NCBI GenBank assembly: GCA_017467745.1
Contig: JAFUKV010000147.1
Span: 1 to 47,073, forward strand
From: Bacteroidaceae bacterium
GTDB taxonomy: Bacteria; Bacteroidota; Bacteroidia; Bacteroidales; CHK158-818
Length of the DNA: 47,073 nucleotides
Direction of reading: 5' to 3'
Shown here: positions 4,968 to 24,942 of the stretch, one piece after another
How the letters are laid out: every line of letters begins with the position of its first letter
Position numbering within the stretch: the stretch's first letter is position 1
Made by a program: the position numbers and the translations under genes
Notes under the pieces: generated by a model
Database searches by the model: none
What the model saw: only the letters and a program-made list of their open reading frames with translations
What the model was told of the DNA's origin: nothing

Positions 4968-6508
4968 ATCAAAGGTATTAAAAAAACAGAAAGCAAAAAG
5001 CAAATAATATTGAGCGGCAAACCTACTTTCACAAAATCAGTAAATTTATATCCGCCCACCCCCTGCACTATCAAGTTTGTTTGATATCCGATTGGCGTAC
5101 TGAACGCTGCCGATGCCGCTATACATATTGTAATGAAAAACGGCGTAGGATCTACCCCCAATTGCATAGCCACCGACAATGCTACCGGAAAACCTAATGC
5201 TGCGGCAGCGTTATTGGTAATCAATTCAGTTACCGCATTCACTATCAGATAGAGCATCGCTAACAGCGCATACGGCCCGTAACTATGCGATAAATTGATA
5301 ATATAGCCAGCAGCCATAGCTGCAAGCCCGGAATTTTCCATCGCTTTACTGATAGCGAAAGCACAAGCGATTGTTATTAAGATATCCCAAGAAATATATT
5401 TGGTATATTTCTTAGGCGGAAAGATTTTCGTCCACGCCATGATTATCGTGGTAACGCAAACAAAAAAGAACATATCCAACTTAATGCCCGGAATGCGCTC
5501 TTTCACGGCCGGAAGTTCTCCTATCGTAGCTCCGACAATCATTATAAACAACAGTATTAAAGCAAACCACCTTTTCTTTTTAGACATGGGACTCTCCCTA
5601 TCCGTACCATTCGCCAAAAGAACAAATACGCTCGAATCTCCCCACGTCGGAATAAACGTATCATCCGCCCAAAGTATCAAAGTATCTCCCTCATGAAACA
5701 CCACACTGTCCAAATCACGCGTATAACGGATTCCTCCGCTTCTTATTTCCTTTACGATAGCTCCGTAATGGCGAGTAAAATTAAACTCTTTCACAGTTTT
5801 ATTAATTCCCGGAAAACGAGAACTAAGCACAGCCTCCACCCGATGCAAGTTTCCCAAATTTCCTTCATCCGAGTCATCGTCCGAATTATTATCCCGTACA
5901 TCCGGTAACAACTTGTTTGAGAACAACAGCATATAAATAATACCGGCAATAGCGATAGGAAGCCCTACCCACGCTATTTCAAACATCGAGAATCCTTCAT
6001 ATCCGGCATCTATAATCATGCCATGTACTACCAAGTTGGTTGAGGTTCCGATAAGCGTACAAATTCCACCTAATACTGTGGCGTAAGACAATGGAATAAG
6101 AAATTTAGTGGCGGGAACCCTCACCTTCTCCGCCCAACGCTTGATGATAGGAGCAAATATAACTACAACGGGGGTATTATTTAAAAATGCCGAAATAAAA
6201 GCAATAGAGGGTAATATTCTCAACTGCGTATTAAACAATGTAGGTTTACCGCTCGGAAGAAGTTTTTTTATCACATGTTCCAACGCCCCGCTTTGCCGAA
6301 TACCTTCGCTTACTAAGAAAAGCATAGCCACCGTTATCATCCCCTTATTGCTGAATCCTTCCAACATCTCTTTCGGGGTCAATATTCCGGCACATAAAAA
6401 AAACACAACTACCGACAACAACACCAAACCCGGACGCATCTTATCCAGAATTAAAACGGTGAGCATTGCGATAAGACCAAAAAGCACTAAATAAGCATCG
6501 AATGACAT
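4955..6508 (-). CDS. SLC13/DASS-family anion permease (probable sodium:sulfate symporter) with a central TrkA-C-like domain
   Basis: 517-aa polytopic membrane protein with hydrophobic N- and C-terminal halves. These flank a soluble segment (RVEAVLSSRFPGINKTVKEF...HEGDTLILWADD). Its position between cysQ and cysC supports the call. Confidence 0.75.
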   Translation of the reverse strand: MSFDAYLVLFGLIAMLTVLILDKMRPGLVLLSVVVFFLCAGILTPKEMLEGFSNKGMITVAMLFLVSEGIRQSGALEHVIKKLLPSGKPTLFNTQLRILPSIAFISAFLNNTPVVVIFAPIIKRWAEKVRVPATKFLIPLSYATVLGGICTLIGTSTNLVVHGMIIDAGYEGFSMFEIAWVGLPIAIAGIIYMLLFSNKLLPDVRDNNSDDDSDEGNLGNLHRVEAVLSSRFPGINKTVKEFNFTRHYGAIVKEIRSGGIRYTRDLDSVVFHEGDTLILWADDTFIPTWGDSSVFVLLANGTDRESPMSKKKRWFALILLFIMIVGATIGELPAVKERIPGIKLDMFFFVCVTTIIMAWTKIFPPKKYTKYISWDILITIACAFAISKAMENSGLAAMAAGYIINLSHSYGPYALLAMLYLIVNAVTELITNNAAAALGFPVALSVAMQLGVDPTPFFITICIAASAAFSTPIGYQTNLIVQGVGGYKFTDFVKVGLPLNIICFLLSVFLIPLIWKF

Positions 6509-6517
6509 AATAATAAA

Positions 6518-7336
6518 TTATTTATTTTTAAGTGCAATAAAAAAAGGATTATGCAAATCCTCTTTATTGTAGCACAACGGAACAGCAGTACCCGAACGGT
6601 ACATATCCATCCCCGCAGCACGCAACAGAGCATGTCCCGCAGCTGTATCCCACTCCATTGTCGGAGCATTACGCGGATATATGTCGGCAGCACCTTCTGC
6701 CACCAAACATATTTTCAACGAACTTCCCACAGACGTAGTTACCAAATCGGGATATTCTTTTTTTAATTCCAAGAGCAGAGCTTCCGTATCCTTATCCATA
6801 TGCGAACGAGAAGCCACAGCCGTATAAGGGCGTTCCTTTTTTATCGGCAAACGTAGAGCCGCTTGTCTTAAACCGACAATATCCATTTTCTGAATATCCG
6901 CTTTTTCAGTTACAGTAGTTTTATATGCTCCGTTTTCTTCATCTCCAAAATAGAGCAGCCCGCTTACCGGAACATAAATAACACCCAAAACCGGAATACC
7001 TTCGTTTACCAACGCTATATTTACCGTAAACTCTCCATTCCGTTTAATAAACTCTTTCGTCCCGTCCAACGGATCGACAATCCAAAGCGTTGGCCACAAA
7101 CGCCTCTCTTGATACGGTATGCTCCTACCCTCCTCGCTCAATATAGGGTAAGGGAGTTTTTCCAAACAACCCGATATAATTTGATGCGCACATCTATCAG
7201 CAATGGTTAACGGTGAATTATCCGCCTTTTTTTCTATCTCGAAATCGGACAACGGATCAGTATATATTTCCATTATCTTTCGACCGGCAAGAACCGCTGC
7301 CCATATGGCGTTTAATAATAACACGTTTGTATCCAT
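6518..7336 (-). CDS. cysQ: 3'(2'),5'-bisphosphate nucleotidase (PAP phosphatase, CysQ)
   Basis: Inositol-monophosphatase-fold motifs ILSEEG and WIVDPLDGTKEF. I prefer the ATG at 7336 (MDTNVLL...) because the track start at 7372 is a GTG inside a hairpin. Confidence 0.8.
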   Translation of the reverse strand: MDTNVLLLNAIWAAVLAGRKIMEIYTDPLSDFEIEKKADNSPLTIADRCAHQIISGCLEKLPYPILSEEGRSIPYQERRLWPTLWIVDPLDGTKEFIKRNGEFTVNIALVNEGIPVLGVIYVPVSGLLYFGDEENGAYKTTVTEKADIQKMDIVGLRQAALRLPIKKERPYTAVASRSHMDKDTEALLLELKKEYPDLVTTSVGSSLKICLVAEGAADIYPRNAPTMEWDTAAGHALLRAAGMDMYRSGTAVPLCYNKEDLHNPFFIALKNK

Positions 7337-7352
7337 TTGGAAAAACTTTTTG

Positions 7353-7360
7353 CAAAAATA
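7353..7360 (-). promoter_or_regulatory. Candidate Bacteroidetes -7 promoter box (TATTTTTG) for the cysQ operon
   Basis: Plus-strand CAAAAATA equals minus-strand TATTTTTG, matching TAnnTTTG. It lies 17-24 nt upstream of the cysQ ATG, inside the loop of the 7339-7370 hairpin. Confidence 0.25.
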
Positions 7361-7556
7361 AAGTTTTTCCACGACTAATCCTCAATTTTAGCCGAATTTA
7401 TATTATTCAAAAATTCTATAAACAAATTCCTGACAAAACCGACAAACCAATACAAAATCCTATAAGGACACTCAATTTTTTCACTATGCTTACCAAGACA
7501 TATATTTCCCTATATTTCCTCTGAACGCGCTGAGTAGAAATGGACAGCAAACGAAC

Positions 7557-7589
7557 AAAAAACCACAAATCAATGATTTGTGGTTTTTT
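7557..7589. terminator. Perfect 15-bp stem-loop with A/T-run arms (bidirectional terminator-like)
   Basis: aaaaaaccacaaatc / aat / gatttgtggtttttt. It lies between tRNA-Ser and the cysQ operon and could insulate the cys operon from read-through. Confidence 0.5.
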
Positions 7590-7750
7590 ATTGCCCGAGA
7601 GTCCAGCTTGCAAGACTCCAAAAGTACCGGAAAGGACAAAATACTGTTACTAAATCGTTACTAAAATCATCTTCTCGTTTTCAGTAATAATTTAGTAACG
7701 AAACTCTGTCCGAACGGGGCTTTTTGCGTCTTTCGGATGTCCAAGAAGAG

Positions 7751-7789
7751 AAATAAAAAATCCCGTAAAATATTGATTTTACGGGATTT
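7751..7789 (-). terminator. Rho-independent terminator downstream of tRNA-Ser
   Basis: 13-bp perfect stem aaatcccgtaaaa / ttttacgggattt with a 6-nt loop. On the minus strand it is followed by TTTATTT. Confidence 0.65.
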
Positions 7790-7825
7790 GTCATACTTTG
7801 ACCCTTTTTTGTCTTCGGGGTTCTG

Positions 7826-7910
7826 CGGAGAGAGAGGGATTCGAACCCCCGGAGCCTCGCAGCTCAACGGTTTTCAAGACCGCCGCAATCGACCACTCTG
7901 CCATCTCTCC
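7826..7910 (-). tRNA. tRNA-Ser (anticodon UGA), class II with long variable arm; CCA not encoded
   Basis: The reverse complement reads GGAGAGA-TG-GCAG...GCGGT-CTTGAAA-ACCGT-TGAGCTGCGAGGCTC-CGGGGGTTCGAATCCCTC-TCTCTCC-G. This gives a 7-bp acceptor stem, anticodon loop CU-UGA-AA, a GAGC/GCTC variable stem and a TTCGAAT T-loop. Confidence 0.9.
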
Positions 7911-7951
7911 TTTTCCCTATTTGAGAGTATATCTTCTCCGGAAAAGCGATG

Positions 7952-7959
7952 CAAATATA
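7952..7959 (-). promoter_or_regulatory. Candidate -7 box (TATATTTG) for tRNA-Ser
   Basis: Plus-strand CAAATATA lies ~42 nt upstream of the tRNA 5' end and matches TAnnTTTG on the minus strand. Confidence 0.35.
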
Positions 7960-8183
7960 CAAGAAGTTTTTTTTGTATGCAAGAAAAGACAAATAATTTT
8001 ATTATTTTTTATTGACCCACTTCATATATAACACACATTCCTAATTTCTCGTTTGACAGAACAACTATTCTTTACCCAATAATAAAACGAATCTTATAAC
8101 ACACCGTATCACCAATAATACTTTTTTATCAGAAAATAGCGGTTTCCAAAGAACTCTATACTAATTATCAACTCATAAGAAGC

Positions 8184-8206
8184 AAAAAGCCCGGTTTATC
8201 CGGGCT
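8184..8206 (-). terminator. Terminator downstream of mdh
   Basis: gcccgg / tttat / ccgggc hairpin. On the minus strand it is followed by a T-run (plus-strand aaaaa at 8184-8188), about 20 nt after the mdh stop. Confidence 0.55.
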
Positions 8207-8224
8207 GTTAACACTCTATATTTA

Positions 8225-9226
8225 TTATTGAATATTCTGATTCAGTTCATGCCAACATGGTATAGATGGCAAAATTCCCATCTGAATAACCTCATCCCGT
8301 AATTTACATAAATGCTCATAACTTTGCTTCAACTCGTTTTCTTCCTCAGGTGTTCCCTGCGGAATAGAATAACGAACTCCTGCTTTATCTATAACCGTTT
8401 CCATTGCCATAACAATATGATTATATTTACCGGCTGCCACATATACCCCTGCCGGCCATTTAAACGGAGCGCCTCCCATAGCAGCGGCAATCATTTCGAT
8501 AGAAAGATATGCGGGACTTTGAAAAGAAGACCGACCTCGCAAATCAATCATATGTTTTCCGCCCTGTACTACTTTCTGGCGCATTTCCATCCATTGAGAA
8601 TCTGATAACCCTTCGGATCCGATAATCTCTAACAACGGCTTATCGCCTACTTTGGCAGTAGAAGCAAATACAGCCATTTGCTCGCCGTGCCCTCCGTATG
8701 TACGGCAATTGGTAATTTCCGACGGTTGTATTTTAAAATGTTTAGCCAATTCGTTACGCAACCGAGTGCTGTCCAACGCTGCCAATGTCGTTACCTGAGT
8801 CGGTTTCAACCCTGAATACAACAATGTTATAAGCCCCGTAATATCTGCCGGATTAAAAACAATCACAACATGTTTCACATGGGGGCAGTATGCTTTTATA
8901 TCTTTTCCGAATTGCGCAGCAATTTCTGCATTTCCTTTAAGTAAATCCTCACGAGTCATTCCTGCTTTACGGGCAGCGCCACCGGAAGATACGATATACG
9001 CCGCACCCGTAAGAGCTTCTTTTATATCGCTCGTATAGGAGATATTCATATTATCGAAACCACATTGTAACAACTCTTCCGCCACACCCTCTAATGCCGG
9101 AGCATAAGGATCATACAAACAGATATTCGGCGTCAGTTTCATCATAATAGCTGTCTGCGCCATATTAGAGCCTATCATTCCTGCCGCTCCAACAATTGTA
9201 AGTTTTTCATTTGTCAAGAATTCCAT
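8225..9226 (-). CDS. mdh: Malate dehydrogenase (LDH/MDH superfamily)
   Basis: 333 aa with an N-terminal Rossmann motif (TIVGAAGMIGSNM) and LDH/MDH-like length and layout. The assignment to MDH rather than LDH is from memory of Porphyromonas-type MDH. Confidence 0.75.
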   Translation of the reverse strand: MEFLTNEKLTIVGAAGMIGSNMAQTAIMMKLTPNICLYDPYAPALEGVAEELLQCGFDNMNISYTSDIKEALTGAAYIVSSGGAARKAGMTREDLLKGNAEIAAQFGKDIKAYCPHVKHVVIVFNPADITGLITLLYSGLKPTQVTTLAALDSTRLRNELAKHFKIQPSEITNCRTYGGHGEQMAVFASTAKVGDKPLLEIIGSEGLSDSQWMEMRQKVVQGGKHMIDLRGRSSFQSPAYLSIEMIAAAMGGAPFKWPAGVYVAAGKYNHIVMAMETVIDKAGVRYSIPQGTPEEENELKQSYEHLCKLRDEVIQMGILPSIPCWHELNQNIQ

Positions 9227-9306
9227 ACTTATATTCTTTAAATATTAATGAATTGTCTTTTGACTATAAAACAAATTATCTGCTAAATTGTTATTTTATA
9301 AAGATA

Positions 9307-9314
9307 CAAAATTA
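9307..9314 (-). promoter_or_regulatory. Candidate -7 box (TAATTTTG) for mdh
   Basis: Plus-strand CAAAATTA lies 81-88 nt upstream of the mdh ATG. Confidence 0.3.
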
Positions 9315-9400
9315 TATTTTATATTGAATAACTATCCAATTAGCAAATTATTTTTATGATATAACAAATAGAAATAAACAGAACAATATTTATCTATTAT

Positions 9401-9408
9401 TATATTTG
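9401..9408 (+). promoter_or_regulatory. Candidate -7 box (TATATTTG) for the trx pair
   Basis: Matches TAnnTTTG and lies 40 nt upstream of the trxA ATG at 9448. Confidence 0.35.
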
Positions 9409-9447
9409 CATTTATATATTTCGATTGTATAACTAAACGTATTTATT

Positions 9448-9744
9448 ATGAAAGACTTTAATACGATAATTGCTTCCGAGAAACCTGTACTGGTCGACTT
9501 CTTCGCTGAATGGTGCGGACCTTGCAAGATGATGAAACCTATTTTAGAAGAATTAAAAGGGATGATTAAAGACGATGCCCAAATCATAAAAATAGATGTA
9601 GATAAACATCAGGAATTGGCCGTACAATATGGCATACAATCAGTGCCGACTCTCATGATTTTCAAAAAAGGAGAAATGTTATGGAGGCAATCGGGTGTAA
9701 TGCGAGCTCCGATGTTGAAAGAATTAATAGACAATTATAAATAA
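9448..9744 (+). CDS. trxA: Thioredoxin
   Basis: 98 aa with the WCGPC active site and thioredoxin-fold length. Confidence 0.85.
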   Translation: MKDFNTIIASEKPVLVDFFAEWCGPCKMMKPILEELKGMIKDDAQIIKIDVDKHQELAVQYGIQSVPTLMIFKKGEMLWRQSGVMRAPMLKELIDNYK

Positions 9745-19259: not shown

Positions 19260-20096
19260 TTATACACACTGCCGCCCCGCCTCAAACGTACGCATTCTCA
19301 AAAATTCCGTCAAATCAGCTATATCGGAAAATTGCATTAAATCGTCCGGCTCTATTTGTTTTCCAACACTTACTCTAATAGTTTTGTTCTTTTTATTAAA
19401 TATTTCTTTGGGTAATCTCAGCGATCTCAATCGCCAACTAATCAAACCTATTAAGTTATATAAAGATGAATTATGTCCATGAAAATAGATTGGAATGACC
19501 GGAACTTTTATTTGCTGTATAAACCGAATTACGGTTTGCTGCCATGGTTGCTCCCTCACATGCAATTTATAATCGTATTTAGCAACGGCTCCCGACGGAA
19601 AAAATCCTAAGGAATGACCGTCTTTTATATGCCTCATCGCCACTTTCAATCCCAATACGGAACTTCTATCATTTTGCAAATCTCCGGAAGGAGGAGTAAC
19701 TCCGATAAAATTATCGGCCATCGATTCTACATTTTCCAGAATTTTATTTACCACTACGCGATAGTCTGAACGGACAGAGGCCATTAAATCTATCAAAATA
19801 ATCCCATCCAAAGCCCCATACGGATGATTCGATATTGTTATAAATTTTCCATCAGCCGGCAGTTGTTCTAATATTTCCCGATTATCAACAGTATAGCTTA
19901 CCTGTAATTCCCGAAGTAAAGATGCCGTAAATTCCGCCCCTTTTTTTTCGCAAGAATGGGCATACAGTTCATTAATATCAGCTACTCCTACTACTTTCAT
20001 CAGAAACTTCAACACGACAGTGCCCCACGCAGTACGAAAAAACGGTACTAACTGCTGAAAATCGTTCTGATTCATCACATAATCTTTTCCGCTCAT
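19260..20096 (-). CDS. Lysophospholipid/glycerolipid acyltransferase family protein (PlsC-like, HX4D)
   Basis: NHPYGALDG (HX4D block) and FFPSGAV (block III-like); 278 aa. Confidence 0.75.
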   Translation of the reverse strand: MSGKDYVMNQNDFQQLVPFFRTAWGTVVLKFLMKVVGVADINELYAHSCEKKGAEFTASLLRELQVSYTVDNREILEQLPADGKFITISNHPYGALDGIILIDLMASVRSDYRVVVNKILENVESMADNFIGVTPPSGDLQNDRSSVLGLKVAMRHIKDGHSLGFFPSGAVAKYDYKLHVREQPWQQTVIRFIQQIKVPVIPIYFHGHNSSLYNLIGLISWRLRSLRLPKEIFNKKNKTIRVSVGKQIEPDDLMQFSDIADLTEFLRMRTFEAGRQCV

Positions 20097-20133: not shown

Positions 20134-20174
20134 AAAAGAGTCCCTACCGAAAACCTTCGGCAGAGGGCTCTTTT
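20134..20174 (-). terminator. Terminator downstream of the inositol-3-phosphate synthase gene
   Basis: Imperfect ~15-bp stem (agagtccctaccgaa / ttcggcagagggctct, with one mismatch and one bulge) flanked by A/T runs. It lies between the MIPS stop (20207) and the acyltransferase start (20096). Confidence 0.5.
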
Positions 20175-20206: not shown

Positions 20207-21505
20207 TTAGTCGATATAATCCAACGTTTCTTCTCCAATAATTTTACGAAGCGTATTTTTCAGTTTTACGTATTGTATGAATAAGTCATGTTCGGGTACT
20301 GTTTCGAAATCGTGCATCGGACTCTTGAAGTAGAACGACAGCCATGACTGGATACCTGAAAATCCGCAACGGGCAGCCAAATCTGTCAATAATACTAAAT
20401 CAAGACACAAAGGAGCAGCCAAAATAGAGTCGCGGCAAAGGAAATCTACTTTCAATTGCATCGGATACCCCATCCATCCGAAAATATCGATATTATCCCA
20501 ACCTTCTTTATTATCTTTGCGAGGCGGGTAATAATTGATACGTACTTTATGATAGATATTTCCGTATAATTCAGGATATAAATCGGGTTGCAGAATAGTA
20601 TCTATTACCGACAGCTTACTAACCTCTTTGGTTTTGAAAGAATCCGGATCGTCCAACACTTCACCGTCTCTATTACCTAATATATTAGTTGAGAACCAAC
20701 CGTTCAATCCGAGCATTCTGGTCTTCAACATCGGAGACAAAACGGTTTTCATCATTGTTTGTCCGGTCTTAAAGTCTTTACCGCAAATAGGCACATTCAT
20801 TTTTTCGGCCAATTGCCACATAGCAGGCATATCTACCGTCAATGCGGGCGCCCCGTTAATGAAAGGAACTCCTTCTGCAATAGCGGCGTATGCGTAACAC
20901 ATACTGGGAGCTATTTCGCAACTATTCTCTTTCATTGCTTGCTCCAATTTTGCCAAGTCTTTATGCACTTCGCCCATCGGCAAATATACTTCTGTACTTG
21001 CGCACCAGATAACGACCAAACGGTCGCAATTATTTTTAGTCTTAAAATTACGAATATCTTCACGCAATTGTTGAACTAAATCCCAGCGTGTAGCGGCTTC
21101 TTTTACCCATGTTCCGTGCAACCGTTTAACGAAATTTTGATCGAAAGCGGCTTTCATAGGTTTGATAGCTTGAAGTTCATCTTTCACGCCATCAAGATCT
21201 TTCGGCAACAATACTTCTGCATTTTTAGCAGCTTCGTACACATCTTCTTCAAAAATGTCCCATCCGCCAAATACGATATCATCGAGTTTTGCCAAAGGTA
21301 CTACGTCTTTTATTTTCGGGAATCTGTTTTCATTTCTTTTTCCCAATCTCATAGTAGCTAATTGTGTTATAGAACCTATCGGCTGAGCCAAACCTTTACG
21401 TACAGCCAATGTACCAACAATAAAGGTCGATGCAACAGCACCACCGACACCAACTACCAGTACGCCAAGTTTTCCGTTGGCTTCTTTTACATTAATTTCT
21501 TTCAT
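20207..21505 (-). CDS. ino1: myo-Inositol-3-phosphate synthase (MIPS)
   Basis: 432 aa with an N-terminal Rossmann motif (GVLVVGVGGAVAST) and STNILGNRDG, which corresponds to the conserved MIPS SxNxLGNxDG block. Confidence 0.9.
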   Translation of the reverse strand: MKEINVKEANGKLGVLVVGVGGAVASTFIVGTLAVRKGLAQPIGSITQLATMRLGKRNENRFPKIKDVVPLAKLDDIVFGGWDIFEEDVYEAAKNAEVLLPKDLDGVKDELQAIKPMKAAFDQNFVKRLHGTWVKEAATRWDLVQQLREDIRNFKTKNNCDRLVVIWCASTEVYLPMGEVHKDLAKLEQAMKENSCEIAPSMCYAYAAIAEGVPFINGAPALTVDMPAMWQLAEKMNVPICGKDFKTGQTMMKTVLSPMLKTRMLGLNGWFSTNILGNRDGEVLDDPDSFKTKEVSKLSVIDTILQPDLYPELYGNIYHKVRINYYPPRKDNKEGWDNIDIFGWMGYPMQLKVDFLCRDSILAAPLCLDLVLLTDLAARCGFSGIQSWLSFYFKSPMHDFETVPEHDLFIQYVKLKNTLRKIIGEETLDYID

Positions 21506-21686: not shown

Positions 21687-22406
21687 TTATAATAGCAATT
21701 CTTTTAAATCAACAAAATTATACACAGTATGTTTATGTTCTTGTTTATTCTCTTCGTCTGTCCATCCCTTTCCTTTAATCCAGATAGTCTGACATCCCAG
21801 TGATTGAGCCGGTACAATATCTTTTTTATAACTATCTCCTATTACCGCCGTTTCTTCCGGATGAAGCGCTAACGCTCTCACGCCTAAATCAAAAATAGCA
21901 GGATCGGGTTTCCTAATTTTTACCACAGCCGATTCTATTATTGTTTTAAAATATGAATCCAACCCAAAATCGGACAACACTGTTTGAATGTTTCCATAAA
22001 AATTAGATACCATCACCATCGGATATTTTTCATGCAACAGAGCAATAAGTTCTTTGGCTTTCGACACCGTTTCCCGTGCAAATTCATAACAAATACCGGC
22101 AATAGACACCACGAAAAATTCCACTTTCTCATTCGTTTCTAAATAACCGTGCTCTACAAGATATTGCATTTGTAATTTCACCTTTGTTTCCAAGACATTA
22201 TAAAAATTATGTTCTGGACGGATATAAGGATGTGTAGCCAACGAGCGTTCTCCAAAAACATACGCATCTCGAAACTGAGTTTTTTCAACCGGAACTTGAA
22301 CTTGCGTATAAGCATCCCACAGAACCTCAGACCAATGATCACCATTTGAGTCTATCGTTCCTCCATAATCGAATATTATGCCTTTTATACCCTGTAATAC
22401 GCTCAT
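21687..22406 (-). CDS. HAD-superfamily (subfamily IA-like) phosphatase
   Basis: Motif I variant IIFDYGGTID, motif II MVMVSNF, motif III KIRKPDP and motif IV VIGDSYKKD. Its start overlaps the upstream stop by 4 nt (ATGA). Confidence 0.8.
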   Translation of the reverse strand: MSVLQGIKGIIFDYGGTIDSNGDHWSEVLWDAYTQVQVPVEKTQFRDAYVFGERSLATHPYIRPEHNFYNVLETKVKLQMQYLVEHGYLETNEKVEFFVVSIAGICYEFARETVSKAKELIALLHEKYPMVMVSNFYGNIQTVLSDFGLDSYFKTIIESAVVKIRKPDPAIFDLGVRALALHPEETAVIGDSYKKDIVPAQSLGCQTIWIKGKGWTDEENKQEHKHTVYNFVDLKELLL

Positions 22407-23323
22407 TTCTCTAATACTATTTTATTTACGAAATATTTACATATACTTTCGTGCTTAGATATCATGTACAGCAATAAAATATTCAATACTGTCAACTCAA
22501 ATACGAAATAAAACCAAGGTAAATTCACAAATATGGAAATAAAAAGAACTATTATCCGCGTATTGAACGATAAAATATTGGTGTACTTCATAAGCGGTTT
22601 ACTTTGCTGACGAAACTGGTTTCTTAACCAATCGGGTACATCGTCTCCATATCTCATTTTCATCTGTTGGCGAAACATCTGCATAGATGGCGAAACCCGC
22701 TCCTGCCCCTGCGTGTAATTGATATAAAAAAGCATGATTAGTTTTTTCCAAAAATGCCCCTTCCAAGGCAGAGTTTTATTGGTTTCTTTCAATTTCGCAA
22801 CTTCATCCAATTCACTGCCATTCTTTCCTTTTACCATATAGAGGTGAAAATTACGGTAATAATCGGCCATAGCAGCCTGCCTCACATGAAAAACACCGGC
22901 AATGGCGGCTAAAAAGAAAATAGATGCGTCCCATCCCTGATGCATCATCCGTACACACACGGCAATATATATCGTTATAAACCATAAATCTCCGCTCAAA
23001 CCATCTAAAATACGCCCTATACGAGAATAATTTCCTGTCATCCGCGCCAACTGTCCATCTGCACTGTCCAAAGAATTTGCCAGAACAATCAATGCCATTC
23101 CTACGACATTATACATTAAATCGACATATCCCAATAAAATACCGCCTGCAACTCCTATAAAAATAGAAATCACGGTAACGACATTCGGTACAATCCCGAA
23201 CTTCTGACATAAAAGAGCCCACCTATATCCGATAGGTCTATAAAACAGGAGGTCTAAGGTCTCTTCCGTATCCATAGATTTGAGCGTCGACTCTAACGTC
23301 GGCTTCTTCACATTCTTCTCCAT
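22403..23323 (-). CDS. CDP-alcohol phosphatidyltransferase family protein (polytopic membrane enzyme)
   Basis: DSADGQLARMTGNYSRIGRILDGLSGD corresponds to the DxxDGxxAR...G...D...D signature. The protein has multiple TM helices and is 306 aa. Confidence 0.85.
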   Translation of the reverse strand: MEKNVKKPTLESTLKSMDTEETLDLLFYRPIGYRWALLCQKFGIVPNVVTVISIFIGVAGGILLGYVDLMYNVVGMALIVLANSLDSADGQLARMTGNYSRIGRILDGLSGDLWFITIYIAVCVRMMHQGWDASIFFLAAIAGVFHVRQAAMADYYRNFHLYMVKGKNGSELDEVAKLKETNKTLPWKGHFWKKLIMLFYINYTQGQERVSPSMQMFRQQMKMRYGDDVPDWLRNQFRQQSKPLMKYTNILSFNTRIIVLFISIFVNLPWFYFVFELTVLNILLLYMISKHESICKYFVNKIVLEK

Positions 23324-23341
23324 AAGATTAAACTATAACCG

Positions 23342-24214
23342 TTAATAATGACACACTTGTTTTTTTACTATTCGTTCTATCGCCATTCCAATATACGGAG
23401 CCGCCATATCTCGACAAGGAGCAAAACTAGGCCAGTCATTTAAATCAATAATACGAATCTCTCCATCGGGAGAAATGATACAATCACCTCCATATATATC
23501 CACATTTAAAACCTCCGCCGCTTCCGAACAAATCTCCCGCATTTCATTTTCCGAAAACGGTATTCCGGTCGCTTTTCCATTAATCTGTTCATGTCCGAAT
23601 TTGCTATGATGAAGATCAAATGGGTAAAACCAATAAAAGAAATCGGTTCCTCTTACTGCATAGAACTTTATCAAATCTCCTATTAAATGACGATTAATAA
23701 CGGCTCTTTCTATGCCTCGCATAGCATATTCCGACAATATTCCTTGCGCCTCCTCAGGATGACGGGCAAAACTGACATCCTCTTTATGTATTACATGAAA
23801 ATCTCCCCTTTTTAACCAGCACTGATTCATTTTTTTTTCTTGCAACAGTTCTATTATAGACAACGATGTTTCCACAATAAGACTTTCCGGATAAGGTACA
23901 TGGTTTTTCATCAACAACCTTGTCATTTTTTCGCGAGTGCAGTTCTCAATACCATAACCCGAATTTGTAATGACACACCCTTCATCTTCGAGCTGCTGTA
24001 ACTTCTTTATCGCTGCCTCTGAACGAGACATATTGAAAATAACTTTTTCTTTTATATTTGAAGATACGAATTCCGACTCATCGTACTCATTTACTACGTA
24101 ACCGCGTTCACGTAAAAAAGAAACAACCAAATTGAATATAGCGGCATCGTTGCCCACATGATTAGGCGAAAATTTATTTTCTCTTCGTACTCCGGCTAAA
24201 ATTTCCTTTTTCAT
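23342..24214 (-). CDS. ATP-grasp-fold-like protein of unknown function
   Basis: 290 aa. The C-terminal GEIRIIDLNDWPSF resembles the D/E-x-N Mg-ATP motif of ATP-grasp enzymes (RimK/ITPK1-like xxDxNxFPG), and CWLKRGDFHVIHKEDV resembles a lysine-containing ATP-binding strand. The assignment is by eye only. Confidence 0.45.
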   Translation of the reverse strand: MKKEILAGVRRENKFSPNHVGNDAAIFNLVVSFLRERGYVVNEYDESEFVSSNIKEKVIFNMSRSEAAIKKLQQLEDEGCVITNSGYGIENCTREKMTRLLMKNHVPYPESLIVETSLSIIELLQEKKMNQCWLKRGDFHVIHKEDVSFARHPEEAQGILSEYAMRGIERAVINRHLIGDLIKFYAVRGTDFFYWFYPFDLHHSKFGHEQINGKATGIPFSENEMREICSEAAEVLNVDIYGGDCIISPDGEIRIIDLNDWPSFAPCRDMAAPYIGMAIERIVKKQVCHY

Positions 24215-24246: not shown

Positions 24247-24942
24247 TCAACGCAAAAAAACTTCTGCTTTCGCAATATCCGAAGCATGATCTACATCTAT
24301 AATTTTTGTAAACGGATATGCTTTTAAGTTCAAACCGCATGTTACCAAACGACGCTGGAAATTTCTCATACGCGATACACCTTCGTCTATACACTGCTTC
24401 AACACCGGTATCGCGGCAGATGTCAGCCCATAAATACCGCCCGATATATATTTCGACCCCATATAATCAGCATCTCTGAAACTCAAAATATTATTATCAG
24501 TATCCGTTTCTACATATAAAGGCTTTTCATCGTCTATATAAGAGGTTACCCCCATCAATCCGTCAATTCCAGAAGTTTTGGAAAACGCTTTTACATAAGC
24601 GGCAAAATCATCCTCACGAAAAATAGTATCGACCGTAGTAAGACAAAATTTATCCGATTTTATTCCCGCCGACAGTTCATAAAAACTATGCATTGAACTT
24701 GGCGTAGATTTTACAAGCAAACGTATCGGATATTGTAAAGAAAGCGCTTTTATATGTTCCTGAACTTCTACCATCTCATTATTCACAATAATGTGAACAG
24801 CATCCGCGTCTTGCGCCATAAAAATCTTTATCAGACGATCTATCATATGTTCTCCGCCAATTTTTATTAGAGGTTTTGGCAAAGAAACTCCTTCTTCTAC
24901 TAACCGCGATCCCTCGCCAGCTGCTATTATAGCAAATTCCAT
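24247..24942 (-). CDS. Nucleotidyltransferase (NTP-transferase fold; candidate inositol-1-phosphate cytidylyltransferase)
   Basis: N-terminal AIIAAGEGSRL...LPKPL signature of sugar/polyol-phosphate nucleotidyltransferases; 231 aa. It is the first gene of the inositol cluster. Confidence 0.8.
   Translation of the reverse strand: MEFAIIAAGEGSRLVEEGVSLPKPLIKIGGEHMIDRLIKIFMAQDADAVHIIVNNEMVEVQEHIKALSLQYPIRLLVKSTPSSMHSFYELSAGIKSDKFCLTTVDTIFREDDFAAYVKAFSKTSGIDGLMGVTSYIDDEKPLYVETDTDNNILSFRDADYMGSKYISGGIYGLTSAAIPVLKQCIDEGVSRMRNFQRRLVTCGLNLKAYPFTKIIDVDHASDIAKAEVFLR

Follow-up and report, generated by a model that had tools for sequence, protein, structure and literature searches.

What is an ATP-grasp protein doing in the middle of a bacterial inositol-lipid gene cluster? 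The window, by which we mean the whole 47,073-nucleotide stretch of contig JAFUKV010000147.1 from a Bacteroidaceae bacterium, encodes just such a protein, and our answer, drawn from its context and held with slightly more belief than doubt, is that it is a cyclitol or inositol-monophosphate kinase, which would feed the cytidylyltransferase next door and, with it and the phosphotransferase, make up a complete Kennedy-type route. The features to which we refer are these:

24247..24942, minus strand: NTP-transferase gene (Pfam), cytidylyltransferase-like, 231 aa, heading the cassette
23342..24214, minus strand: ATP-grasp gene, an ATG-started ORF of 290 aa
23423..23464, minus strand: C-terminal strand of the ATP-grasp protein, GEIRIIDLNDWPSF, residues 251-264, in which D257 and N259 are predicted Mg/ATP ligands and D260-W261 is family-specific
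22403..23323, minus strand: CDP-alcohol phosphotransferase gene (Pfam), 306 aa, a membrane protein
21687..22406, minus strand: HAD-IA phosphatase gene (Pfam), 239 aa, sharing 4 nt with the transferase gene
20207..21505, minus strand: myo-inositol-1-phosphate synthase (MIPS) gene (Pfam), 432 aa, facultative within the cluster
20142..20165, minus strand: terminator-like hairpin just 3' of MIPS, its 10 bp stem leading into a T-run (consensus scan only)
19260..20096, minus strand: GlsA/OlsF-like O-acyltransferase gene (Pfam), 278 aa, possibly accessory, its membership uncertain

Does this ORF represent a genuine gene, and does it belong with its neighbours? The ORF list confirms the tight packing reported by the first-pass annotation, with 32 nt from the end of the NTP-transferase gene to the ATP-grasp ORF and 18 nt from there to the start of the CDP-alcohol transferase gene, and an arrangement of this kind makes co-transcription with the neighbours plausible. 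The sole strong terminator-like hairpin on the minus strand within the cluster, at 20165-20142, comes after MIPS and is likely, as far as sequence can tell, to mark the end of the transcription unit; a sigma-70 promoter scan found no enrichment (22 sites against 28.8 expected) and, since it covers that one promoter type and leaves others beyond its reach, is silent on co-transcription. The ORF itself is far beyond chance, because it has 5319 homologues at E<=1e-3 in a set of 5.8 billion proteins, which cluster at 50% identity into 988 representatives. The same figures overturn the earlier label of 'orphan', which is apt only insofar as the family lacks an assigned role: the homologues appear in public records either as 'hypothetical protein' or under the automatic name 'Glutathione synthase/Ribosomal protein S6 modification enzyme', which derives from the RimK-type ligases, and this is a well-conserved family without a name.

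To which superfamily it belongs can be answered from the predicted structure. The AF2 model (mean pLDDT 96.8, pTM 0.92) has the three-domain ATP-grasp fold, as had been proposed, and Foldseek with this model returned at least 500 matches at E<=1e-3, headed by Ddl, ArgX, RimK and PsnB (E about 1e-14 to 1e-13), with ITPK absent from the top 50. In VIA comparisons, matches to the superfamily reach Z 17-22 over ~250 residues, the best at 22.0 over 258 residues with an rmsd of 3.1, and individual scores run from RimK at 22.0 and ArgX at 21.5 through synapsin (19.8) and ITPK1 (19.5) to PPIP5K2 (18.6). The model thus matches the RimK, Ddl and ITPK1 folds alike, and such searches settle the superfamily of the modelled protein but cannot tell a kinase from a ligase, since the range from Z 22.0 to 17.9 spans RimK, LysX, CPS, Ddl, synapsin, ITPK1 and PPIP5K2. 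The best structural matches lie with the RimK/LysX/ArgX/MptN ligases (PF08443, TIGR00768; 4iwx at Z 22.0, 3vpb and 5k2m at 21.5), and the ITPK family (PF05770; 1z2n, 2qb5, 7pup and 8oxe) shares the three-domain fold at Z 17.9-19.5 over 245-264 aligned residues.

Searches by sequence divide in much the same way. The ORF scores under the cut-off of every Pfam and NCBIfam model, and its only Pfam match, STPPase_N at E 0.035, is spurious. The best of the weak NCBIfam matches are to the glutamate ligase MptN (E 5e-8) and the RimK family (E 8e-7), with LysX also among them, yet the scores fall far under the curated RimK/LysX-type cut-offs (28.7 bits against 143.4 for TIGR00768, 32.5 against 350 for the MptN model NF040720, and 18.3 against 275.6 for TIGR02144). 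The Pfam ITPK model PF05770 (Ins134_P3_kin) does not match the window protein at E<=1; it touches 4 of 111 family members at E<=0.1, all under its cut-off and the best at E 0.0036, and gives 17.6 bits against a cut-off of 23 for one protein in which an NTP-transferase is fused to the ATP-grasp domain, while Pfam RimK matches 8 of the 111, at best with E 0.001. A single-sequence search of the PDB places the Entamoeba Ins(1,3,4)P3 5/6-kinase 1z2n first (E 8e-5), a profile search the peptide ligase PsnB (E 3e-7), with ITPK1 and ITPK4 also present, and a protein-atlas feature search scores clusters labelled RimK and one Asgard cluster labelled ITPK about equally (0.96-0.98). Identity in the structural alignments is highest with the ITPKs, at 16-19%, against 15% with RimK/ArgX. 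As the whole fold is marginally nearer to the RimK/LysX ligases than to ITPK1, we read the ITPK likeness as local, and not as family membership.

That local likeness is concentrated in the C-terminal strand, and here the first reading of the protein was accurate. The string that it quoted, GEIRIIDLNDWPSF, is present in the translation at residues 251-264 (window 23423-23464), and across 111 sequences the strand is kept almost letter for letter: D257 in 109, N259, D260 and P262 in all 111, W261 in 101 (with F in the other 10), S263 in 107 and F264 in 108. The segment IIDLNDWPSF aligns with VVDVNVFPSY of 1z2n and IVDLNYLPSF of 7pup, so that the Mg strand has the D-x-N-x-aromatic-P-S-F/Y form of the ITPKs, as had been claimed, and not the E-x-N form, the aligned stretch of the ligase PsnB being E-L-N; the D-x-N strand likewise separates the protein from the RimK-type ligases. 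Elsewhere, W133, K135, G179, F184, Y185, G242, G243, D244, N259, D260 and P262 are invariant in the 111 sequences. By analogy with the wider family, the predicted ATP-phosphate lysines (K135 in 111, K183 in 110) and three predicted Mg-binding acid or amide residues (D244 in 111, along with D257 and N259) are conserved, and a further polar block of R11, D23, D146, H176 and D260 is kept in 107-111 of the 111. The conserved basic residues outside the putative ATP site are few (R11, R64, R136 and K205), suggesting that the substrate is neutral or carries a single phosphate.

Could the protein nonetheless have lost catalysis and serve, in the manner of synapsin, as an ATP-binding subunit with a scaffolding or regulatory part to play for the cytidylyltransferase? 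The synapsin C domain does score highly against the model (Z 19.8), and fusion to the NTP-transferase would suit a regulatory domain as well as an enzyme, but we think this very improbable indeed: the complete set of predicted ATP/Mg ligands is retained together with the polar block, a pattern usual for an active site that works on a specific substrate, and position 64 shifts together with headgroup chemistry, as described below.

What, then, do the neighbours do? The NTP-transferase ORF matches Pfam NTP_transferase (E 2e-10) and NTP_transf_3 (E 6e-10), has a below-threshold NCBIfam match to the archaeal inositol-1-P cytidylyltransferase/DIPP synthase (E 4e-10), and finds in the PDB, by sequence, only 6pd1, a cytidylyltransferase-type entry in which a nucleotidyltransferase is fused to an aminotransferase (E 7e-4); it is predicted to make a CDP-cyclitol. 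The CDP-alcohol transferase (Pfam CDP-OH_P_transf, E 1e-10), whose best PDB sequence matches are the CDP-alcohol phosphotransferase AF2299 (E 5e-5) and human choline/ethanolamine phosphotransferase 1 (CEPT1, E 3e-4), is predicted to move phospho-inositol from CDP-inositol to a lipid acceptor. The HAD ORF (Pfam Hydrolase, E 4e-17; a weak PGP_phosphatase match at E 0.002; NCBIfam REG-2-like, CTE7 and YjjG-like families) may be an inositol-monophosphate phosphatase or a headgroup-phosphate phosphatase, and the MIPS ORF matches NAD_binding_5 (E 1e-110) and Inos-1-P_synth (E 5e-33).

The ATP-grasp gene keeps constant company with three of these genes, the NTP-transferase, the CDP-alcohol transferase and the HAD phosphatase, in a four-gene cassette, and MIPS is not among the constant partners. 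The order NTP-transferase, ATP-grasp, CDP-alcohol transferase holds in 26/26 loci, and ATP-grasp is followed by the CDP-alcohol transferase in 80/80 loci of a second set; the NTP-transferase lies directly upstream in 103 of 127 fetched loci, fused in one frame in 4 of those; the HAD gene is found in 25/26 loci, and MIPS in 20/26 and 45/80; all these counts describe loci and not independent events, since related loci are not independent and the sets overlap (L035 and L036 are one contig, and several of the loci with G handles probably recur among L036-L115). Between the transferase and HAD genes, many loci also carry a gene for an LPG_synthase_TM (MprF-like) protein.

Fusions make the link to the cytidylyltransferase more intimate still. 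Of the long homologues, 7 of 10 that were scanned consist of an N-terminal NTP_transferase and a C-terminal ATP-grasp domain, and LicCA and Fkp are cytidylyltransferase-kinase fusions with a matching domain order. The recurrent union with a soluble NTP-transferase points to a step on a soluble substrate beside CDP-activation, and for this reason we disfavour the idea that the enzyme is a lipid-headgroup kinase, which would turn finished PI or inositol phosphoceramide into a PIP-like lipid by phosphorylation, while the HAD protein acted as the opposing phosphatase. That idea would make good use of the local ITPK-like features and of the phosphatase gene that lies alongside in 25/26 loci. It seems improbable to us all the same, as the secondary structure of the AF2 model has no standout transmembrane or amphipathic segment, phosphorylated inositol lipids go unreported for Tannerella forsythia in the relevant part of PMC4587543 and for B. 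vulgatus and P. veroralis in that of PMC9246714, and a lipid kinase would leave those bacteria that import inositol and have no MIPS match without a kinase to make the cytidylyltransferase substrate.

How closely is the cassette tied to inositol synthesis? Among 201 genomes of the same order, the ATP-grasp gene is present in 27, all of which (27/27) have the orthologous CDP-alcohol transferase, and MIPS is found in 25 of these 27 against 31 of the 201 overall. The association with MIPS that had been anticipated is therefore real, but it is not obligatory: six genomes carry the cassette and yet gave no match to PF07994 (MIPS), namely G106, G204 and four whose completeness was not reported (T. 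forsythia ATCC 43037, a Tannerella sp. MAG, P. distasonis NM39_I3 and P. chinchillae). Given these six genomes, we regard co-occurrence within the cassette as the stronger signal and set MIPS aside as the main test. What is new here is that the ATP-grasp gene is an invariant cassette member and that MIPS is dispensable.

In T. forsythia the copies of the ATP-grasp gene, at 7001-7858 of locus L054, and of the HAD gene are intact despite the lack of a MIPS match. According to the part of Megson 2015 (PMC4587543) that concerns us, its inositol-phospho-dihydroceramides are made solely from exogenous myo-inositol, no candidate inositol kinase is reported there, and its inositol lipids are by NMR/MS plain and undecorated, with labelled inositol in no other lipid. 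The relevant section of Heaver 2022 (PMC9246714) describes B. thetaiotaomicron as using another pathway and incorporating almost no exogenous inositol. These data bear directly on a rival, namely that the protein is an ATP-grasp ligase, joining a carboxylate such as an amino acid by an ester or amide bond to the cyclitol headgroup or its precursor and giving an aminoacylated inositol or inosamine lipid, perhaps handled by the MprF-like LPG_synthase_TM protein. Its neighbours by fold and HMM are mostly ligases (RimK, ArgX/LysX, MptN and PsnB), the LPG_synthase_TM gene sits within many loci, and in Ignavibacteria the gene, sometimes tandemly duplicated, adjoins one for a class-III aminotransferase, a potential source of an amine nucleophile. 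We nevertheless consider a headgroup ligase unlikely, because T. forsythia has an intact gene and undecorated inositol lipids. Plain PI-DHC is also what B. vulgatus and P. veroralis make with the alternative cluster, and the LPG_synthase_TM homologue occurs in the B. thetaiotaomicron-type cluster too, which is without ATP-grasp, both as described in the portion of Heaver 2022 (PMC9246714) that we cite. Furthermore, Bacteroidales clusters that lack the aminotransferase keep the gene and its invariant residues, nothing in their cassette suggests a carboxylate or amine substrate, and the Mg strand is of the ITPK and not the PsnB type. Of the activities that the first-pass annotation offered, the inositol-phosphate kinase thus survives within the reading that we favour, while the headgroup ligase and the inositol-lipid kinase do not fare well.

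The favoured reading, a soluble cyclitol or inositol-monophosphate kinase, would work as follows. Since the NTP-transferase and the CDP-alcohol transferase resemble the last two steps of a Kennedy pathway, a kinase would be the missing first step, and it is from this setting that we infer the kinase activity, what it acts on and how the steps follow one another. The ATP-grasp protein would be a catalytically intact enzyme performing the ATP-using step of the four-gene cassette; the cytidylyltransferase would convert its product to a CDP-activated headgroup, which the membrane transferase would put onto ceramide or diacylglycerol, yielding inositol phospholipids and inositol phosphoceramides. 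In the variant that we prefer, the kinase would act on myo-inositol: HAD would strip the phosphate from the MIPS product or from scavenged inositol phosphates to give free inositol, and the ATP-grasp enzyme would re-phosphorylate it at the position that the cytidylyltransferase needs, which would also permit salvage of external inositol. In the other, it would add a second phosphate to inositol monophosphate, and this phosphate would ride on the CDP intermediate onto the lipid and then be removed by HAD, as in the PIP-synthase/PIP-phosphatase route. The cited part of PMC6900528 provides precedent, in that both Ins(1)P and Ins(3)P are substrates of ITPK1 and Asgard ITPK1 homologues flank MIPS genes, an association with MIPS that the window gene shares.

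Several points count against a kinase. The nearest whole-fold neighbours of the model are ligases (RimK at Z 22.0 and ArgX/LysX at 21.5, against 19.5 for ITPK1), genomes that contain MIPS would not obviously need a kinase if the Rhodothermus operon is a guide, the HAD gene is kept in genomes without a MIPS match, and T. forsythia could have another, unrecognised kinase.

How does the cassette compare with what has been described? The Rhodothermus marinus CDP-inositol operon, in the account of Jorge, Borges and Santos 2015 relayed in PMC4587543, consists of MIPS, IPCT and BEPIS only; it resembles the window in setting an NTP-transferase and a CDP-alcohol transferase beside MIPS, and that description is without an ATP-grasp gene. 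The B. vulgatus-type alternative cluster of Heaver 2022 (PMC9246714), with its NTP transferase, phosphatidyltransferase and HAD genes, corresponds to the window cluster, in which all four described genes are Pfam-matched in the described order, a correspondence that we draw from the published description. The cited section of that paper names BVU_RS13095, 13105 and 13115, passing over the genes between, and compares the alternative route to the Kennedy pathway; 'ATP-grasp' occurs 0 times in its main text and 8 supplements. Our literature search likewise found no kinase or ligase of the proposed kinds in described bacterial inositol-lipid pathways, in agreement with the initial assessment. Like Kennedy and lic-type headgroup activation, the proposed scheme runs from kinase to cytidylyltransferase to CDP-alcohol or phosphocholine transferase, but the kinase proposed here has an ATP-grasp fold whereas theirs have a choline-kinase/APH or GHMP fold. 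Unlike the ITPKs, which work in a soluble InsP network, the window gene is bacterial and lies within a cassette for lipid-headgroup activation.

Why should this matter? Inositol sphingolipids of gut and oral Bacteroidales influence host interaction and bacterial fitness, and the alternative pathway, widespread in Prevotella, Phocaeicola, Parabacteroides and Tannerella, is not known to have been verified with its enzymes. The three-gene model in print for it omits the always-present ATP-grasp gene. Were the protein an inositol kinase, it would answer a question left from 2015, namely by what means T. forsythia converts the inositol that it imports into roughly a quarter of the lipid in its membrane, and would explain both why B. 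thetaiotaomicron-type strains are unable to use external inositol and how cassette strains can live without MIPS. It would also extend to bacteria the ATP-grasp inositol kinases, which the relevant part of PMC6900528 describes from eukaryotes and Asgard archaea only. For those wishing to pursue this, the cassette is a defined four-protein system for reconstitution in vitro.

A distinct version of the cluster is found in Ignavibacteria, where it adds the class-III aminotransferase (confined to this version), an IolG-like oxidoreductase and Mla genes, and it probably points to a new aminocyclitol lipid. In the ATP-grasp paralogue of such clusters, Q64 replaces R64 in 11/11 loci with the IolG-like oxidoreductase and aminotransferase and in 0/109 ATP-grasp ORFs elsewhere, so pocket position 64 appears to track headgroup chemistry; the Q64 copies form one clade (tree support 84/81) and represent a single evolutionary event, and we have therefore dropped the association as multiple independent support. 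If we allow ourselves to speculate, and we would sooner bet against it than for it, this may be the founding bacterial family of ATP-grasp cyclitol kinases, supplying the missing first CDP-inositol enzyme that would enable T. forsythia, Parabacteroides and Phocaeicola/Prevotella-type bacteria to make inositol sphingolipids from inositol that they scavenge from the host or its diet, with the Q64 paralogue phosphorylating an aminocyclitol produced by the oxidoreductase and aminotransferase, for an undescribed aminocyclitol phospholipid with MprF-like flipping and dedicated Mla export.

Finally, the O-acyltransferase ORF at the far end of the cluster matches Pfam Acyltransf_2 (E 3e-21) and, under cut-off, NCBIfam OlsF (E 2e-45) and GlsA (E 4e-36). 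In loci L041 and L072 its gene separates the ATP-grasp gene from the transferase gene, and in loci without an ATP-grasp gene it pairs with a paralogous transferase.

The evidence that we regard as decisive on the role of the ATP-grasp gene is its genomic context, which in the window takes the following form.

24247..24942, minus: NTP-transferase, 231 aa (Pfam NTP_transferase), ending 32 nt before the ATP-grasp ORF
23342..24214, minus: ATP-grasp ORF, 290 aa, ATG start; C-terminal strand GEIRIIDLNDWPSF at residues 251-264 of the protein
22403..23323, minus: CDP-alcohol transferase, 306 aa (Pfam CDP-OH_P_transf), beginning 18 nt past the ATP-grasp ORF
21687..22406, minus: HAD hydrolase, 239 aa (Pfam), overlapping the CDP-alcohol transferase ORF by 4 nt
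20207..21505, minus: myo-inositol-1-phosphate synthase (MIPS), 432 aa (Pfam), 181 nt after the HAD ORF

Every checkable detail in the first-pass annotation, namely the ORF, its 32-nt and 18-nt spacings and the C-terminal string that it quoted, was right by the ORF list and Pfam. The inositol genes appear from sequence to end as a unit at 20142-20165 (minus), because the strongest terminator-like element of the region, a hairpin with a 10-bp stem and a T-run, lies there between MIPS and an acyltransferase gene. This GlsA/OlsF-like O-acyltransferase (19260-20096, minus) adjoins MIPS, and since similar genes are inserted between the ATP-grasp and CDP-alcohol transferase genes at two other loci (L041, 8560-9366; L072, 10663-11457), it may be part of the pathway; one possible job would be to esterify the ceramide's 3-hydroxy acyl chain. 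The lipids of Tannerella forsythia are described as carrying a second, ester-linked fatty acid (PMC4587543).

The gene had been placed in an inositol cluster, and this holds up well across 201 genomes of the same order: it occurs in 27 and MIPS (E<=1e-20) in 31, with both in 25, the ATP-grasp gene without MIPS in two (G106 and G204) and MIPS without it in six. An orthologous CDP-alcohol transferase accompanies it in 27 of 27 genomes, four more having only a 40-44%-identical paralogue, and four of the five MIPS-only genomes tested have a PIP synthase of the B. thetaiotaomicron type instead (three above cut-off). There are thus two mutually exclusive inositol-lipid routes, and the ATP-grasp gene is part of one of them. 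The order NTP-transferase, ATP-grasp, CDP-alcohol transferase is found in all 26 loci from the sample, with HAD in 25 and MIPS in 20. Among 80 named genome loci, the transferase comes next after ATP-grasp in every one, the NTP-transferase lies directly upstream in 75 (contig ends cut two of the five exceptions) and MIPS falls within the stretch in 45; more broadly, in 103 of 127 fetched loci (L010-L136) the NTP-transferase lies no more than 400 nt upstream.

The cluster in the window is the one that Heaver et al. 2022 called a putative alternative inositol lipid cluster, defined there by B. vulgatus genes for an NTP transferase (BVU_RS13095), a phosphatidyltransferase (RS13105) and a HAD protein (RS13115) (PMC9246714). 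The same paper describes a transferase-HAD fusion in P. veroralis, and reports that B. thetaiotaomicron, with its route from CDP-DAG and Ins-P, uses exogenous inositol in trace at most. The term ‘ATP-grasp’ does not occur in its accessible text, and its supplementary files, as examined, contain none of ‘RS13100’, ‘ATP-grasp’ and ‘glutathione synthase’. Literature searches gave no description of the gene, nor did a term search of a 2025 review, and they gave no published proposal of a role for the family.

That the 290-aa protein has an ATP-grasp fold, as first proposed from its C-terminus, is now established by modelling: an AlphaFold2 model built from an alignment of 111 diverse family sequences has a mean pLDDT of 96.8 and a pTM of 0.92, and Foldseek returns at least 500 PDB matches with D-Ala-D-Ala ligases, ArgX, RimK and PsnB at their head (E about 1e-14 to 1e-13). 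VIA-align, run exhaustively against 48,161 representative chains, gives Z scores of 22.0 for RimK, 21.5 for ArgX/LysX, 20.3 for carbamoyl-phosphate synthetase and 19.8 for synapsin, and of 19.5 for human ITPK1, 18.6 for PPIP5K2, 18.3 for potato ITPK1, 18.1 for Arabidopsis ITPK4 and 17.9 for Entamoeba ITPK, so the fold by itself does not separate kinase from ligase. Pfam gives no relevant match to the protein and NCBIfam only far sub-threshold ones (RimK, MptN, LysX), while among the 111 members there are weak Pfam matches to RimK (8), ATPgrasp_ST (8), R2K_3 (5), TTL (5) and Ins134_P3_kin (4). By their HMM thresholds it lies outside the ITPK, RimK and LysX families, in a widespread unnamed ATP-grasp family whose public records read ‘hypothetical protein’ or bear a RimK/glutathione-synthase label assigned automatically. 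A collection of 5.8 billion proteins holds 5319 homologues (E<=1e-3); at 50% identity there are 988 representatives (289 of these at E<=1e-30). The family ranges by record titles across Ignavibacteria and gut and mouth Bacteroidales such as Tannerella, Parabacteroides, Muribaculaceae and Prevotellaceae.

Throughout the alignment W133, K135, G179, F184, Y185, G242-G243-D244, N259, D260 and P262 are invariant, and R11, S16, P17, D23, E46, M62, N84, R94, D146, H176, K183, D257, W261, S263 and F264 are at least 90% conserved. By analogy, K135, K183, D244, D257 and N259 would be the usual ATP-grasp phosphate and Mg ligands, and with these conserved the enzyme looks catalytically competent; a non-catalytic subunit, given so fully conserved an active site, is very hard to credit. 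The Mg strand reads D-x-N and then D-W-P-S-F, and HMMER pairs it with VVDVNVFPSY of Entamoeba ITPK (the best PDB match for the single sequence, whole-sequence E 8e-5) and IVDLNYLPSF of Arabidopsis ITPK4. The ITPK-like motif claimed at the outset therefore stands as a local resemblance to ITPK strands, yet the protein falls outside PF05770. The top profile match is a ligase, PsnB (E 3e-7), with E-L-N-A-S at the aligned strand. A ligase would indeed suit the overall-fold neighbours and the aminotransferase that adjoins the gene in Ignavibacteria, but we think it unlikely: the strand is D-x-N, the Bacteroidales cassette points to no partner that is an amine or a carboxylate, and T. forsythia, B. 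vulgatus and P. veroralis make undecorated lipids.

The MIPS Pfam model, positive in G000 and control genomes, has no match in T. forsythia ATCC 43037, a Tannerella sp. MAG, Parabacteroides distasonis NM39_I3 or P. chinchillae DSM 29073 (completeness not reported), nor in G106 (94% complete) or G204 (100% complete), and the cassette is present in all six. In T. forsythia its four genes are intact and contiguous.

L054 (T. forsythia locus) 6191-6961, 7001-7858, 7831-8778 and 8736-9506: cassette genes

According to Megson et al. 2015, this organism is without inositol synthesis genes, makes plain inositol-phospho-dihydroceramides, using exogenous myo-inositol only and with no candidate inositol kinase reported, and has a BEPIS homologue, the cytidylyltransferase being believed missing (PMC4587543). 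The gene reported absent is that at L054 6191-6961, an intact NTP-transferase; the ATP-grasp gene stands between it and the BEPIS-like transferase, two genes downstream. Directly upstream of the NTP-transferase lies a 556-aa Asp-Al_Ex/TrkA_C permease (L054 4536-6206), a possible candidate for an inositol importer.

Making inositol phosphoceramide from free inositol and ceramide via a CDP-headgroup requires an ATP-dependent kinase, a cytidylyltransferase and a CDP-alcohol phosphotransferase. Of these, the second and third are recognisable in the cassette: the sole PDB sequence relative of the NTP-transferase is a cytidylyltransferase-type fusion protein, and the closest PDB sequences to the CDP-alcohol transferase are the archaeal CDP-alcohol phosphotransferase AF2299 and human choline/ethanolamine phosphotransferase. 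The ATP-grasp enzyme is the only ATP-using protein present, and in seven of ten long homologues scanned, as well as four fetched loci, it forms the C-terminal part of a fusion with the NTP-transferase, the domain order of the known cytidylyltransferase-kinase fusions LicCA and Fkp. Fusion to a soluble enzyme argues against a kinase acting on the lipid headgroup, as does the lack of reports of PIP-like lipids, and we hold that alternative to be quite improbable. There is also precedent for an ATP-grasp kinase working on inositol monophosphates: ITPK1 accepts Ins(1)P and Ins(3)P as substrates, its Asgard homologues flank MIPS genes, and the authors of that study propose an inositol or IP1 kinase as its original function (PMC6900528). 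On these grounds, reading from genomic context, we somewhat favour a cyclitol kinase that supplies the cytidylyltransferase; the remaining probability falls to some explanation outside these four readings. The protein would then most resemble an ITPK-type inositol kinase, at the head of a Kennedy-type pathway. This prediction can be tested directly and concerns a question that has been stated as open.

The proposed cyclitol kinase could work in two ways. It might phosphorylate free myo-inositol, with the HAD protein serving as an inositol-monophosphate phosphatase whose substrate is either what MIPS makes or inositol phosphates taken up by scavenging, which fits MIPS-less inositol importers directly. 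Alternatively, it might phosphorylate inositol monophosphate, the HAD protein (a weak match to the Gep4-type PGP phosphatase family) stripping the extra phosphate off the lipid product in an echo of PIP-synthase/PIP-phosphatase logic, which more easily accounts for the retention of kinase and HAD in MIPS-containing genomes.

In other classes of the phylum (by record titles Ignavibacteria, Melioribacteraceae and some ‘Chlorobiaceae’ or Bacteroidota MAGs) the cluster is expanded, running SDR, NTP-transferase, MlaE, MlaF, MlaD, ATP-grasp (one copy, or two in tandem as in G309/L129 and G379/L127), class-III aminotransferase, CDP-alcohol transferase, Gfo/Idh/MocA oxidoreductase (top NCBIfam match inositol 2-dehydrogenase IolG, E 2e-23, sub-threshold), LPG_synthase_TM, HAD and MIPS.

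L132 1667-12777, minus: expanded cluster (also in L124, L126-L129, L131 and L133-L136)

Across 122 ATP-grasp ORFs from all fetched loci, Q64 occurs in 11, exactly one copy for each of the 11 loci with aminotransferase and oxidoreductase, and R64 in 111, of which 109 come from loci without those genes and two are extra tandem copies. The Q64 copies lack the S204-K205 loop and form a single clade in a maximum-likelihood tree (support 84/81), so the switch is one evolutionary event, not repeated convergence; in G309, where both cluster types occur, R64 belongs to the simple one and Q64 lies beside the aminotransferase. The pattern is consistent with a pocket adapted to an amino-cyclitol, a further hint that the substrate is a cyclitol. 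The other invariant residues are identical in R64 and Q64 types, fused forms and the T. forsythia copy, and the chemistry is probably the same throughout the family. By its gene content, the expanded cluster looks set up to make an aminocyclitol (inosamine) phospholipid and to bring a flippase-like protein and an Mla exporter of its own; we know of no such lipid.

LPG_synthase_TM (MprF flippase-like, 340-360 aa) also lies between the CDP-alcohol transferase and HAD genes at L011 (10097-11179) and at least 15 other loci, and in the window it does not stand there, the two ORFs overlapping each other. Six loci (L116-L121, from G127, G160, G102, G003, G144 and G106) hold a paralogous CDP-alcohol transferase (39-44% identity) without NTP-transferase, ATP-grasp or HAD, paired with GlsA/OlsF-like acyltransferases (one or two) at five of them, and next to SIG54 (L116) or PdxA (L117), both of which flank the window's inositol cassette; perhaps these loci form a sister module that serves a different phospho-headgroup lipid. 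One 691-aa protein (P0228), a PAS-HisKA-HATPase_c sensor kinase with a C-terminal copy of the same ATP-grasp domain (residues 425-679), may reflect either faulty gene calling or a regulatory fusion. Finally, at L122 (G073; 620-1885), where the ATP-grasp gene is absent and HAD is present as fragments only, the NTP-transferase and the C-terminal two-thirds of the CDP-alcohol transferase lie 3 nt apart in the same frame, with a 436-aa open frame at the transferase match, a layout that is reminiscent of archaeal IPCT/DIPPS fusions or may reflect a decaying cluster.
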